A DNA stretch of 64,000 nt from Candidatus Kapaibacterium sp. (GTDB lineage: Bacteria > Patescibacteriota > Patescibacteriia > UBA9934): NCBI GenBank assembly GCA_044350705.1, contig JBILHA010000001.1:244242-308241 (forward strand). The letters are read 5' to 3'. The notes below the pieces were generated by a model, which worked only from the letters and a program-made list of their open reading frames with translations, did no database searches and was not told the origin of the DNA. Shown one piece after another: positions 1,974 through 22,283 of the stretch (position 1 is the first letter of the stretch; each line of letters begins with the position of its first letter). Made by a program: the position numbers and the translations under genes.

Positions 1974-2924
1974 ATGCAACAGATTTTTATGTTTGTACAG
2001 TCGTTTCAGACGTTGTCAAAACATGACACGCGTCTTGCGGGAGGAAAAGGGGCGAGCTTGGGAGAAATGACGCAGGCGGGCATTCCGGTTCCTCCAGGAT
2101 TCGTTGTTCTCCGTACGGCATTCGATCGCTTTCTTGAAGACGCACAGCTGACTTTGGAAATTGAGGCCGTGCTTGATAAGGTGAATTGCGAAGATGTTGC
2201 TTCAGTTAATCGTGCTTCGCGAGTGATTCATGATCTTATTCATGACGTGTGTTTTCCTGAAGATCTCGAAAAAGAAATTTTATCAGCTTTTGATGAGCTT
2301 GGTTCAGAATTTGTGGCGGTACGTTCCTCTGCTACCGCTGAAGATTCTTCTACGGCAAGCTGGGCGGGCGAGTTAGAAAGTTATTTGAATACTACGCGTG
2401 AAGTACTTTTAGAGCATGTAAAGAAGTGTTGGGCCTCGCTGTTTACGCCTCGTGCCATTGTATACCGTAATGAAAAGGGTATGCGGAGTACGCGTGTTTC
2501 GGTTGCGGTCGTTGTACAGAAAATGGTGCAGTCAGAAATTTCTGGAGTGACGTTTACCGTACATCCGGTTACGCGTGATATGAATCAGATGATTTTAGAA
2601 GCATGTTGGGGGCTAGGAGAATATATTGTAGGGGGAGTGGTAACTCCTGATTCGTATATTTTCGATAAAAAAGACGGAACTATTTTGGATATGTATGTAG
2701 CTGATCAAGATCGCATGTTGATTCGGGGCGAAAAAGGAAATGAGGATGTTCCTGTACCGATTGAGAAAGTGAATGCACAAAAGCTTGATAGCAGACAGAT
2801 ACGTGAGTTTGGAGATATCTGTATACGCATTGAAAAGCATTACGGATTTCCTTGTGATATTGAATGGGCGATGGAGGGTGGGGCGTTTTACGTTGTTCAG
2901 AGTCGACCAATTACTACATTGTAA
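1974..2924 (+). CDS. PEP-utilising enzyme, N-terminal ATP/pyruvate-binding (PPDK_N-like) domain as a stand-alone ORF
   Basis: Hallmark [10 protein letters not shown] motif near the N-terminus. Ends ...[20 protein letters not shown], exactly at the domain boundary. Confidence 0.7.
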
Positions 2925-2932
2925 ATTTTTCT

Positions 2933-4006
2933 ATGCAAAAAGAACTTTCACTTATTTTTACTCGTGATTTTTCAATGTTTACTTGTGATTTTTGGCATAT
3001 ACTCATGACGGATGTTATCGCTCAGGCATATGGTGTTTCATTTTCTGGACAAGTTATTGCATTTAACGGTCGCGCTATAGAATGTTATCGACCTAGCGAT
3101 GAAATGCGTAATATAAAAGAACGCATCATTCATTTGCCTGAAAGTCACGATCTTTTTTCTCAGAAAAATCGCATTGCATTTGAATGTGCGGTGCGTGATG
3201 CCCGCGCAATCATTCAGCGCATAAAAGGATCTTCTCGAGAAGAGTATTTCGATCTTGTTTCTGACTTGCTTGATGCCTGGAAGCGCTTCTATCCGCATTA
3301 TATGCTCGCCAATTTTTTACCTGGACCTTGGCGAGAAGAATTTTTATCAATGGGTGATGCATGGAGAGATACTGTGATAAATGAATTCACGTATGATCGT
3401 CATGCATGTGAAGGGGTATTTGAAGCTGCCGATATTGCCATACGTGAAGCGTTGCGTTTGTGCCTTGAGAAGCTATCTGTTTCTGTAAAGTATGCAGAAT
3501 TTCTTTCTTTCAATGAGGCGATGGCTTTGTTACGAGAAGATCGCGTGCCGAATCTCCCTCATTTAGAAGAGCGGATGCGTGGTTATTTTATGATAGGAGA
3601 CGCGGTACATATGGACACCTCTTTTGATGTATTGATTTCGAAGTTTGGTTATTTTTATCGTGCTCCTGAAGTTGAAAAAGGACAGAGGGAGTTTAAGGGA
3701 GCTGTTGCGTTTTCCCATGCACCTGTTCGAGGTAAAGTATTTTGTATTTTTACTTACGATCAAGTAGGTAATTTTCCTGAAGGCGCAATTCTCGTAGCGC
3801 CGATGACCGCTCCTGAATATTTATCTGCAATGAAACGCGCACGTGCGGTCGTGACTGATGAGGGAGGTGTTACATGCCATGCAGCAATTGTGAGTCGAGA
3901 ACTTCAAATACCTTGTGTTATTGGTACCAAAGTAGCGACTCGGATTCTTAAAGAGGGTGATGAGGTAGAGGTAGATGCAGAGCATGGTATCGTGCGCATT
4001 CTTTAA
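2933..4006 (+). CDS. PEP-utilising enzyme, central domain plus C-terminal mobile phosphohistidine domain (second half of a split PEP synthase / rifampin-phosphotransferase-like enzyme)
   Basis: C-terminus ...[27 protein letters not shown]... is paralogous to the fragment at 1-260. Starts 9 nt after the stop of the preceding PPDK_N ORF, in a different frame. Confidence 0.65.
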
Positions 4007-15479: not shown

Positions 15480-15540
15480 AGGTGCTTTACGAAACTTCCT
15501 CTTTATGATTTACTATTTCCGCTTTTGAACGTTCGTTTTT

Positions 15541-15615
15541 GCGGGCGTGGTGTAGCGGTAACATGTTTGCTTCCCAAGCAAAAGATCGCCGGTTCGATCC
15601 CGGTCGCCCGCTCCA
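15541..15615 (+). tRNA. tRNA-Gly (anticodon CCC)
   Basis: Acceptor GCGGGCG/CGCCCGC, anticodon stem TTTGC/GCAAA with loop tTCCCaa, T-loop GGTTCGATCC, encoded CCA. Confidence 0.8.
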
Positions 15616-15666
15616 CGAAAAATTTATCTTCCTTATCCTTTTCTTTGTAAAGAGTGATGATAAGTG

Positions 15667-15793
15667 AAGATGTGCCACTAAGTTTGTTCAGATTCAAGGA
15701 GCCGACGAGCACGGCCGAGGCGTAGGTAAATCCTACGGTGAGGCCGCGCGCAGGAGGCGACGCCGAAGATGGACAAACTTGGGTGGCACATCT
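15667..15793 (+). ncRNA. Candidate structured RNA / long hairpin spacer between tRNA-Gly and tRNA-Thr
   Basis: About 20-bp imperfect inverted repeat (AGATGTGCCACTAAGTTTGT ... ACAAACTTGGGTGGCACATCT) enclosing a GC-rich ~85-nt interior with a perfect hairpin CGTAGG-TAAAT-CCTACG. Ends 2 nt before the tRNA-Thr 5' end. Family unknown. Confidence 0.4.
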
Positions 15794-15795
15794 GT

Positions 15796-15871
15796 GCCGA
15801 TGTAGCTCAGTTGGTAGAGCAGCGGTATCGTAAACCGCAGGTCACCGGTTCGAGCCCGGTCATCGGCTCCA
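15796..15871 (+). tRNA. tRNA-Thr (anticodon CGT)
   Basis: Acceptor GCCGATG/CATCGGC, D-arm GCTC-AGTTGGTA-GAGC, anticodon stem GCGGT/ACCGC with loop aTCGTaa, T-loop GGTTCGAGCC, CCA. Confidence 0.85.
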
Positions 15872-15886
15872 GAAAGATCGTCTGTC

Positions 15887-16612
15887 ATGCACAGGCGATT
15901 TTTCTTTTGTGCGCTATACTATTGGTATGTGATTACGCTTCGTAATGTCACGAAAGTTTATCCTCCTGATGTTCATGCCTTGCGTGGAGTAACTTTTCAT
16001 ATCGAGCCTGGAGAATTCGTGTCTATCGTAGGATCAAGTGGAAGTGGAAAGACGACCATTGCTAAACTTCTTTCGGCTGAAGAAAAGCCCACCGAGGGTC
16101 AAGTTATTATTGGAGAATGGGATATCTCGCGGATTCCTCATTATCAAGTTCCCACGCTTCGTCGTCAATTAGGGATGGTTTTTCAAGATTATAAACTTCT
16201 TCCTAAGAAGACTGCCTTTGAAAATGTTGCCTTTGCATTGGAAGTTGCGGGAGAACATTCAAAGCGTATTCAAGAGATCGTTCCCCAAGTGATGAAAATT
16301 GTTGGACTTGCGGATAAGGCACACCGTTATCCTCGACAGCTTTCAGGAGGTGAGCAGCAGCGTGTCTCGATTGCTCGCGCTTTAGTACATCGTCCAAAGA
16401 TCATGCTTGCGGATGAGCCTACGGGAAATTTGGATGCCGTCACCGCGCGAGAAATCATTGAGCTTCTCAAGCGTATCAATGAATTTGGTACGACGGTTGT
16501 GCTCGTTACGCATGATCGCGATATTGTGAATGCGCTCAACCGTCGAGTGATTACGGTACAAAAGGGGGAGATTGTTTCTGATGTTGCGAAAGGTAAGTAT
16601 CATCTTGGATAG
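15887..16612 (+). CDS. ftsE: Cell-division ABC transporter ATP-binding protein FtsE
   Basis: Walker A GSSGSGKTT, ABC signature LSGGEQQRV, Walker B MLADEPTGNLD. The real start may be the GTG about 40 nt downstream (VITLRNVTKVY). Confidence 0.85.
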   Translation: MHRRFFFCALYYWYVITLRNVTKVYPPDVHALRGVTFHIEPGEFVSIVGSSGSGKTTIAKLLSAEEKPTEGQVIIGEWDISRIPHYQVPTLRRQLGMVFQDYKLLPKKTAFENVAFALEVAGEHSKRIQEIVPQVMKIVGLADKAHRYPRQLSGGEQQRVSIARALVHRPKIMLADEPTGNLDAVTAREIIELLKRINEFGTTVVLVTHDRDIVNALNRRVITVQKGEIVSDVAKGKYHLG

Positions 16613-17527: not shown

Positions 17528-17599
17528 ATGAGTTGTGGGGTGTTACTTGGCAAAGTAAGGAATGTTTGGCATAGTGTTACGCGTCTTGTTTTTTCAAGA

Positions 17600-17735
17600 T
17601 AAGTCTCGAATTCCTCTTCATTTCGAGGCAGTTTGGACCTACAGAGGGAGGATTGCTGATCCGTACCTAAATGTACGGAGAGGCAACCGGACTGATAGGG
17701 GCTCCAAAATGACCGAAATGAAGAGGAATTCGCTT
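17600..17735 (+). ncRNA. Candidate structured RNA / long hairpin leader immediately 5' of tRNA-Gln
   Basis: Perfect 19-bp long-range helix (CGAATTCCTCTTCATTTCG ... CGAAATGAAGAGGAATTCG) closing a ~95-nt interior with a central hairpin CCGTAC-CTAAAT-GTACGG. The 3' strand of the helix ends 1 nt before tRNA-Gln. Same architecture as the element at 15667-15793. Confidence 0.4.
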
Positions 17736-17809
17736 TCCGAGATCGTCTAAAGGCAGGACAGCGGCCTTTGAAGCCGTGAATCATGGTTCGAATCCATGTC
17801 TCGGAACCA
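17736..17809 (+). tRNA. tRNA-Gln (anticodon TTG)
   Basis: Acceptor TCCGAGA/TCTCGGA, 3-bp D-stem, anticodon stem GCGGC/GCCGT with loop cTTTGaa, T-arm CATGG-TTCGAAT-CCATG, CCA. Confidence 0.8.
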
Positions 17810-17845
17810 AAAAAAGACTAGCTTTTTAGCTAGTCTTTTTTTGTC
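17810..17845 (+). terminator. Rho-independent terminator after tRNA-Gln
   Basis: AAGACTAGC-TTTTT-GCTAGTCTT perfect hairpin followed by a T7 run. Confidence 0.8.
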
Positions 17846-22062: not shown

Positions 22063-22151
22063 TGAGATGTCGGTTTAAGAGAAAAGGGAGGCATGATTGT
22101 GGAGAGGATTTTGGGTAATGGCGGGTTATTTATTTTAGTGTGAAAAACATG

Positions 22152-22232
22152 ACGTAAGTATACTTTACATTTTGCATTTCACGACGCAATAAACATTGGC
22201 GTTTTTAAAATGCATGTAAAGTATACTTACGT
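22152..22232. promoter_or_regulatory. Perfect 19-bp inverted repeat pair (ACGTAAGTATACTTTACAT / ATGTAAAGTATACTTACGT) separated by 43 nt; candidate operator upstream of the XRE regulator
   Basis: Read directly from the sequence. Lies between the XRE start (22062, minus strand) and the stop of the upstream minus-strand gene (22284). Confidence 0.5.
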
Positions 22233-22283
22233 TAGTTTTTTGACATAAAAAAGAAGAAGCATTTTCGTGCTTCCTCTCATTTC

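Follow-up and report, generated by a model that had tools for sequence, protein, structure and literature searches.

Structured RNAs that lie directly beside a tRNA fold, with a tRNA-processing nuclease defining one of their ends, occur in the MALAT1-mascRNA, gammaherpesvirus 68 tRNA-miRNA and plant tRNA-snoRNA units. At the tRNA genes of Neurospora mitochondria stand GC-rich palindromes which, like the mobile GC clusters and double-hairpin elements of fungal mitochondria, are short, suspected of mobility and suspected of being removed by tRNA processing. Among bacterial foldback repeats, RNase III cleaves the transcribed hairpins of the Correia miniature inverted-repeat elements (MITEs) at their inverted repeats (PMC10969869), and the repetitive extragenic palindromes (REPs) are palindromes of 20-40 nt with a terminal GTAG or CGTC tag (PMC3733652). 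Here we analysed a 64,000-nt stretch of Candidatus Kapaibacterium sp. (Patescibacteriota; contig JBILHA010000001.1, positions 244,242 to 308,241; hereafter the window), in which two hairpins, E1 and E2, precede tRNA-Thr and tRNA-Gln. We found that E1 belongs to a real, conserved family of strand-specific rods at the borders of tRNA genes, that E2 is homologous to E1, and that copies recur before at least seven different tRNAs, with empty sites in close relatives.

The genomes of Patescibacteria are tiny and tightly packed, and very few regulatory RNAs or mobile elements are known from them, so that a conserved, structured 125-nt element in tRNA leaders is conspicuous. The element is undescribed in the literature that we searched; a 2024 review of MITEs says nothing of tRNAs, and neither that review nor a 2024 survey of 183,232 genomes takes up tRNA targeting or Patescibacteria. 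While foldback repeats and transcribed hairpins are known as such, the conserved GA-ladder core with free termini, the polar link to both tRNA borders and the host group are new.

E1 is an unbranched rod that ends at tRNA-Thr

A first-pass annotation, made from the letters of the window alone, had described a hairpin filling the 180-nt spacer between tRNA-Gly and tRNA-Thr, closed by a helix of about 20 bp and ending 2 nt before tRNA-Thr. Folding confirmed this 3′ end. It also showed that the outer helix (15668-15690 with 15770-15793) is longer, with 23 bp and a single bulged G at 15781, and that the hairpin leaves the first 52 nt of the spacer (15616-15667) to an A+T-rich linker with weak structure. 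The parts of E1 are as follows.

15668-15793, + strand: element E1, a 126-nt unbranched rod hairpin (fold; 120.8 bits with covariance model R1, of which E1 is a training member)
15668-15679, + strand: 5′ arm of the distal helix, partner 15782-15793; sequence copy-specific, pairing alone conserved
15680-15690, + strand: 5′ arm of the conserved inner helix, (C)UAAGUUUGUUCA, partner 15770-15780 (UGGACAAACUU), with G15781 bulged
15691-15769, + strand: conserved core, containing CGAG-N7-GA-NN-CGUA...UACGG-U-GAG (alignment)
15721-15737, + strand: apical hairpin CGUAGG-UAAAU-CCUACG (sequence and fold)
15770-15793, + strand: 3′ arm of the outer helix, ending 2 nt 5′ of tRNA-Thr (fold)

The + strand of E1 folds at -74 to -75 kcal/mol, compared with -38 to -39 ± 3.3 kcal/mol for dinucleotide shuffles (z = -10.6 to -11.2), and none of 200 shuffles folded equally well. 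The - strand is weaker (-61 kcal/mol, 14 kcal/mol worse than the + strand). The interior had been called GC-rich around an apical hairpin; the apical hairpin stands, but the interior proved to be a regular ladder of 1-5 bp helices set between 2x2 tandem G.A or purine-purine loops, with GA on both strands. The inner-helix sequence UAAGUUYG...CRAACUUGG was found again in five of the related loci described below, which carry L numbers (L010, L018, L027, L078 and L096). Since a second, independently made assembly of this strain (L136, Logan SRR27421204) does not differ over 15480-15900, the E1 unit is not an assembly artefact.

We also considered whether E1 could be a chance palindrome or a diverged form of a known RNA, such as the signal recognition particle (SRP) RNA, 6S RNA, tmRNA, RNase P RNA, Y RNA or a self-cleaving ribozyme. 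At the gathering threshold, Rfam 15 returned tRNAs only and nothing over E1 or E2, and even at E <= 10 no match overlapped either element, as the first-pass annotation had anticipated for SRP, 6S, tmRNA and RNase P RNA. There was likewise no Rfam 15 match on 15 related loci, and none at E <= 5 on the GC-rich loci L014 and L025. What speaks for a known RNA is no more than a superficial resemblance of motifs, namely CUGAUGA in E2-type copies and GAGCCGUAC, which looks like group II intron domain V. Against these stand the shuffles (z about -11), the covariation across copies from dozens of loci and the empty Rfam result, which make the proposal highly improbable; as far as Rfam 15 represents the known families, it is refuted, and the earlier view that the hairpin is no chance palindrome is upheld.

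Several individual candidates were tried and rejected. E1 has neither the GGAA loop nor the AGCA motifs of SRP domain IV, it lacks the central bubble of 6S RNA and occurs in many copies, and a C/D box-like GUGAUGA lies 5′ of E1 only and is not conserved. The hammerhead-like CUGAUGA of E2-type copies comes without stem II or GAAA and without an Rfam match, the GAG arms do not pair as they would in group II intron domain V, and the loops of the hairpin ribozyme are absent. Nor are the apical loops genome-specific, as UAAAU recurs in several genomes.

E2 is homologous to E1

The second structured element that had been noted before tRNA-Gln is also real:

17607-17732, + strand: element E2 (E2 subtype), in the tRNA-Gln leader, ending 3 nt before tRNA-Gln (fold; R1 match)

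Its folding z is -8.3 to -10.2. The two elements had been taken to be unrelated in sequence, which is wrong. For the covariance model R1, we combined E1 with 12 E1-type copies found on other contigs and left E2 out; a search with this model, run with filters off, detected E2 at 49.5 bits (E = 4e-10). E1 and E2 have in common the core CGAG/GGAG-N7-GA-NN-CGUA-loop-UACGG-N-GAG as well as further shared blocks, and are homologous. In the whole 64 kb, on both strands, R1 gave no match beyond E1 and E2.

A 7-mer, GATAAGT, lies 1-3 nt 5′ of both hairpins (15660-15667 and 17597-17603) in this genome only. It was considered as a -10 box or as an element end and was rejected for both, being a poor -10 match and missing from other genomes.

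The elements probably lie within tRNA transcription units

The tRNA units around the two elements comprise the following features.

15486-15514, + strand: promoter-like TTTACG-N17-TTTACT 5′ of tRNA-Gly (read by eye from the sequence)
15541-15615, + strand: tRNA-Gly(CCC) (ARAGORN; Rfam tRNA, 65.4 bits)
15616-15667, + strand: A+T-rich linker of 52 nt from tRNA-Gly to the hairpin; weak structure only, not conserved
15796-15871, + strand: tRNA-Thr(CGU) (ARAGORN, Rfam)
15877-15908, + strand: terminator-like hairpin ATCGTCTGT-CATGC-ACAGGCGAT followed by TTTTTCTTTT (T run), at the end of the tRNA operon (read from the sequence; unlisted by the scanner)
17547-17575, + strand: promoter-like TTGGCA-17-CATAGT with extended TG (scanner; common to relatives without E2)
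17736-17809, + strand: tRNA-Gln(UUG) (ARAGORN, Rfam)
17808-17843, + strand: terminator hairpin past tRNA-Gln, with perfect 16-nt arms and then a T run (inverted repeat, sequence)

The hexamers TTTACG and TTTACT occur at equal spacing before tRNA-Gly in L004 and L005 and before tRNA-Thr in L002. In the window, a consensus promoter scanner did not call the site because of the T at position 2 of the second hexamer. It is the likely start of a transcript that would comprise tRNA-Gly, E1 and tRNA-Thr. Neither reading of the sequence nor the scanner found anything terminator-like between the two tRNAs, and the tRNA polycistron assumed in the first-pass annotation is supported by a conserved promoter-like site before tRNA-Gly, a terminator after tRNA-Thr and none between. 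E1 itself does not qualify as an intrinsic terminator, since GU and then the tRNA follow it, with no U run, and the scanner was silent there. As a U run is absent 3′ of E2 as well, both elements would be leader or spacer parts of tRNA precursors. The only open reading frames (ORFs) across E1 (15769-15945, + strand; 15733-15888, - strand) extend through a tRNA gene and are spurious, in agreement with the earlier statement that the element holds no ORF; the 20 ORFs around the elements in the window are housekeeping genes.

Copies recur at tRNA gene borders in related genomes

Syntenic loci were retrieved via FtsX, and more copies were obtained by a metagenome scan with the apical motif and by searches with the R1 model. 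The FtsX relatives of the window are metagenome-assembled genomes of Patescibacteria and Uhrbacteria, and loci that bear on the element are listed here, the first five entries with their FtsX identity to the window.

L001 (FtsX 84%): both elements present, with compensatory changes in the E2 stem
L004 and L005 (FtsX 86% and 83%): Gly-Thr spacer of 15-17 nt, no hairpin
L003 (FtsX 45%): Gly-Thr spacer of 41 nt, no hairpin
L006 (FtsX 67%): E2-type copy at the pre-Thr site
L008 and L010 (FtsX 61%): E1-type copies at the pre-Thr site
L010 2887-3012 (- strand), L085 4552-4674 (- strand), L036 2226-2339 (+ strand) and L078 119-241 (- strand): copies of a reversed subtype

Orthologues of E1 occupy the same Gly-Thr site in L010, L008, L036, L085, L111 and L072, and the changes in the L001 orthologue of E2 fall in its outer helix. 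Both sites, the Gly-Thr spacer and the tRNA-Gln leader, lack the element in L004, L005 and L003; in the first two, the promoter shared with the window, there TTGGCA-17-CATACT, stands 12-13 nt from tRNA-Gln with no hairpin between. Further copies, from the motif scan and the model search, precede tRNA-Arg(GCG), Lys(UUU), His(GUG), Ala(CGC) and Gly(GCC), so that, besides the two copies in the 64-kb window, the related contigs carry copies before seven different tRNAs. These forward copies end 0-15 nt 5′ of the Thr, Gln, Arg, Lys, His, Ala and Gly tRNAs, while stand-alone low-GC copies are followed by terminator-like hairpins (L064 and L105).

The copies of the reversed subtype abut the upstream tRNA in L010, L036, L078 and L085, at -3 to +2 nt from its 3′ end; in L010, L036 and L085 they take the position of the linker 15616-15667. 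They have their own conserved core (..CAAGGAG..GAGGAGCGAAG..CGAGCACC..) and the outer helix AUUUAAAC. Reversed and forward copies stand head to head in these four loci and in L105. At all nine independent sites (9/9), the 3′ end of the element points to the tRNA. In summary, the class of tRNA-linked structured elements suggested in the first-pass annotation, which had named conservation and covariation in related genomes as the test beforehand, is borne out on both counts.

About 25 nt 5′ of the element in L096, a fragment CTGCTAAGTTTGGTCAG (oriented 3322-3345) again shows the conserved E1-type motif of the 5′ helix, apparently as the remnant of a second, degraded copy.

The empty sites bear on the idea that E1 acts in cis within the tRNA operon, in processing or stability, with its stem letting RNase III in or shielding the 5′ side and so tuning the maturation or the level of the downstream tRNA. 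We hold this to be improbable, as close relatives express the same tRNAs from the same promoters without the hairpin, a processing stem needs no conserved 80-nt core, and neither the stand-alone copies nor the reversed ones at tRNA 3′ ends agree with it, even though the position flush at the 5′ end of many tRNAs, the near-perfect duplex of ~20-23 bp, which is long enough for RNase III, and the location in leaders directly behind promoters would suit such a role.

Covariation points to one folding strand and to selection

In 12 copies, RNAalifold identified 35 pairs, 20 of them with compensatory changes. We then used an alignment of 57 distinct copies (A4); it was fitted to the model, which favours structure somewhat, and in it 88.7% of cells are paired compared with 59.3% after shuffling, with a covariation score of 0.609 as against 0.148 for shuffled alignments and at most 0.123 for slid registers. 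Double changes occur in 30/35 pairs in these copies and in all 17 outer-helix pairs, and the apical closing pair covaries among copies (GC 22, CG 31). Paired columns contain G.U 140 times and A.C 31 times (4.5-fold), and mismatches are purine-purine in 151 cases and pyrimidine-pyrimidine in 27. The excess of G.U and of purine-purine mismatches implies that one specific strand folds, which could equally be RNA or single-stranded DNA.

The E1 core is 84% identical to that of L010 and 60-73% identical to those of other genomes. The distal arms are 27-46% identical between copies and are paired in each. Orthologous pre-Thr copies group by host lineage (76-84%), with 72% for the paralogue on the same contig. 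The invariant columns are concentrated in the interior, and the termini differ between the Patescibacteria copies. This pattern suggests that purifying selection acts on both the core sequence and the pairing of the arms.

GC-rich relatives behave as insertions

Most matches to the apical motif are rods of 180-200 nt in contigs with 60-73% G+C, which fall into three families, G1, G2 and G3. An identical human-gut sequence and a motif in glycosyltransferase coding sequence were left out of the motif scan as false positives. Each family has 11-18 loci, with copies more than 90% identical within the family and flanks that are unrelated. The ends are sharp and are formed by the hairpin arms; the termini differ between families, and the apical module is common to them. 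The borders are mostly TA in G2 (often within CTAG), and 3-bp TNA repeats in G3; the boundary sequences of G2 are GCCCGCATTTCTCACCAGG...CCTGGTGAGAAATGCGGGC, and the hosts of G2 are Deferrimicrobiaceae-like. The orientation of the GC-rich copies relative to flanking genes, called with a GC1 > GC2 filter and with L019 as control, is random.

In L019, a 196-nt copy lies exactly in the 13-nt overlap of larC and radA, and what was inserted corresponds exactly to the hairpin. L132, L133 and L135 have an intact overlap; RadA identities in the relatives without the copy are 96%, 87% and 78%. To judge from this comparison, the L019 copy is a clean, recent insertion, with a junction that is ambiguous as to target-site duplication. 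Taken together, the presence and absence at orthologous sites, the reversed copies and the GC-rich insertion are, on sequence evidence, the population behaviour of a mobile element. Hence, a dedicated RNA function is not the sole reading of the family, and perhaps not the best.

Two further observations concern these GC-rich copies. The insertion in L019 (3849-4044, compared with ~1501-1513 in L135) gives larC a new stop, the UAG of a conserved CGUAGCGAG motif, and its 3′ arm gives radA a new AUG start, which leaves both larC and radA intact. At one and the same point of the 3′ arm, some copies have an extra hairpin-forming insertion, of 58 nt in G2 (L013, L022, L075 and L112) and of 22 nt in G1 (L122), which suggests modular or nested variants.

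The GC-rich families could also be taken to mean that E1 is a MITE purely at the DNA level, with an incidental RNA fold and no selection on the single-stranded form. They have sharp inverted-repeat ends with mostly TA or TNA flanks, are random in orientation and include one clean insertion, and the patchy presence among Patescibacteria relatives would agree. However, the 4.5-fold excess of G.U over A.C and the systematic purine-purine mismatches on one strand are at odds with a fold that matters only as duplex DNA, variable termini around a conserved interior are the reverse of transposase-bound inverted repeats, and the arms covary in place. We therefore see only a slim chance for this explanation.

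A proposed foldback module parked in tRNA precursors

Our favoured reading, to which we give roughly an even chance, is that the rods are a foldback module of the mobile-element type, parked in tRNA precursors and removed by tRNA processing, whose core is kept for recognition in single-stranded form. E1 would be transcribed within the tRNA-Gly/tRNA-Thr precursor, as its promoter and terminator context suggests, and would fold on itself as an autonomous rod. Given the established specificity of RNase P, its cut at the 5′ end of tRNA-Thr would set the 3′ end of E1, and the 5′ side would be freed by 3′ processing of tRNA-Gly and/or by RNase III cutting of the ~23-bp stem, for which the Correia hairpins offer a precedent. 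Since E1 would be severed on both sides, it would do no harm to the tRNAs. The family would spread, or would once have spread, as a non-autonomous mobile element whose insertions place its 3′ end toward a tRNA gene. The purine-rich core, with tandem sheared G.A pairs and loop-E-like loops, may be the recognition module for a protein acting on the single-stranded form, be it the enzyme that mobilises the element or a partner that binds the RNA. Compensatory evolution would keep the outer arms paired, and the insert would thereby remain self-contained beside the tRNA.

Several points weigh against this scenario. The sense strand of the reversed subtype is antisense to the tRNA operon, and a role at the RNA level would need antisense transcription there. 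No transposase is present in the scanned 35 kb of the window (20 ORFs, all housekeeping), no target-site duplication was recognisable at E1, E2, L018, L027 and L078, and there are no conserved termini among the Patescibacteria copies. These copies look like old, vertically inherited residents, and a core that has kept 60-84% identity where neutral flanks and distal arms have become random would imply selection in place, which is unexpected for a purely selfish relic. The link of G1-G3 to the Patescibacteria rods consists of the apical search motif and a shared architecture, with only ~5 conserved columns common outside the motif; we make the link because each time it is a GA-laddered rod that bears the apical module at its tip. 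Finally, we infer the transcription of E1, its release by RNase P and its cutting by RNase III from the sequence. As for the ends, terminal inverted repeats reach the ends of the insert, being formed by the outer helix, though the terminal sequences vary in the Patescibacteria copies. Neither plasmid nor phage BLAST searches nor motif scans of viral contigs gave anything usable, and no REP-associated tyrosine transposase (RAYT) gene was found in the scanned part of the window.

The evidence for selection in place raises the question of whether E1 could be the gene of a trans-acting small RNA, for which the tRNA or a terminator only forms the 3′ end and whose purine-rich loops engage a cellular protein, giving the RNA the part of a sponge, scaffold or regulator. 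Long-term purifying selection on the core with covarying arms, a strand-specific fold, vertical inheritance of orthologous copies, forward copies that without exception share the direction of the tRNA and directly adjoin it, and stand-alone low-GC copies followed by terminator-like hairpins (L064 and L105) would all be expected of such a gene. We nevertheless consider it less likely than the favoured reading. The element is missing from close relatives, occurs in several diverged copies and subtypes per genome, and in the reversed subtype is antisense to the tRNA operon, while the GC-rich kin with the apical module are randomly oriented to genes and behave as insertions. A linked partner protein gene was also sought and not found: clustering of neighbouring ORFs returned only spurious element-overlapping ORFs and syntenic cell-division genes, with no recurrent partner protein, and the ORF scan of the window gave none.

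The polarity of the copies allows another, tentative reading, which we regard as unlikely: the rods would be a so far unrecognised type of structure-specific mobile element, whose tandem-G.A core, acting as single-stranded RNA or DNA, serves as the recognition or catalytic module of a mobilisation pathway aimed at the base of the tRNA cloverleaf from either side. This would explain why the 3′ end always faces the tRNA border, why the core rather than the termini is conserved across phyla, and why the element is present or absent in close relatives. In a variant, the rod, once released, may be a small RNA of high abundance that binds protein and is peculiar to Patescibacteria, with RNase P maturing it on both sense and antisense tRNA folds.

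Returning to the parked foldback module, the conserved interior with free termini inverts the usual MITE pattern, which makes the family well suited to testing where selection acts: at the level of RNA, of single-stranded DNA or of the host. A released rod would be a candidate for an abundant small RNA in organisms that do not grow on their own in culture, and if the rod is mobile, its polar placement at both tRNA ends would be a targeting rule not described for bacterial MITEs. On a practical level, the rods will confuse annotation through high-GC intergenic 'ncRNA' calls and spurious ORFs.

Other observations in the window and related loci

At 22126-22258 of the window, between convergent or divergent genes of the glycosyltransferase type, there is an A+T-rich inverted repeat with 45-nt arms that are 80% complementary and a 43-nt spacer; R1 gave no match there, and this repeat is unrelated to the rod family. 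At 1974-4006, pyruvate phosphate dikinase is split over overlapping ORFs (PPDK_N, 1974-2924; PEP-utilizers, 2864-4006), which could reflect a frameshift, a programmed shift or a split gene.

Right after tRNA-Gln, L001 (2111-2200) and L005 (5114-5195) have a conserved G+C-rich segment of ~85 nt (ATCTAGTACCCGTTCTGGGCGACCTG...GGGCACTGGTCCAAGCAAAACCCCCAAGTCGTAAGACTCGGGGG), where the window has a plain terminator instead; this segment may be another structured RNA. L002 (CAYPWV010000004.1) is labelled 'uncultured Gammaproteobacteria bacterium', but its FtsX is 84% identical to that of the window and its gene order is similar, and the bin is probably mislabelled.

Comparison with known systems

Of the described systems, the Correia or NEMIS elements of Neisseria are similar to the rods in being non-coding foldback sequences of 100-200 bp in many copies, which occupy intergenic and leader sites, are co-transcribed with their neighbours (as E1 would be), form a long hairpin and are patchily distributed among relatives. 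Correia elements have conserved 26-bp terminal repeats, a TA duplication, promoters and an integration host factor (IHF) site (see also PMC10969869). In the rod family, by contrast, the termini vary and the interior is conserved, with systematic tandem G.A mismatches on one strand, and the Patescibacteria copies are polar and flush against tRNA gene borders; the two are set apart on these features, and no similarity in sequence is expected.

As in the case of REPs and REPINs, which RAYT transposases mobilise, the rods are strand-specific hairpin repeats, of a kind thought to act as single-stranded DNA, inverted pairs occur, and the GC-rich families contain motifs with GUAG. They differ from REPs in their length of 125-200 nt and in having GUAG inside internal loops of both arms and not at the terminus, and the 3-bp direct repeats of G3 are not made by HUH transposition.

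The units of the MALAT1-mascRNA type share with E1 a structured non-tRNA RNA that directly adjoins a tRNA fold. Those units are eukaryotic or viral and have demonstrated products, whereas the product proposed here is a predicted one and the reversed copies face an antisense tRNA. The GC-rich elements of fungal mitochondria are likewise G+C-rich palindromic insertions in a compact, A+T-richer genome and are concentrated at tRNA borders, but they are short and do not have such a structured core, and no homology is implied.

Finally, the rods can be compared with the group I and group II homing introns. Unlike these, they have no intron core motifs, no Rfam intron match and no associated ORF, and they lie outside the mature tRNA. 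They nevertheless resemble homing introns in combining a conserved core with variable peripheral helices, in their sporadic presence among close relatives and in their return to the same sites by stable RNA genes.

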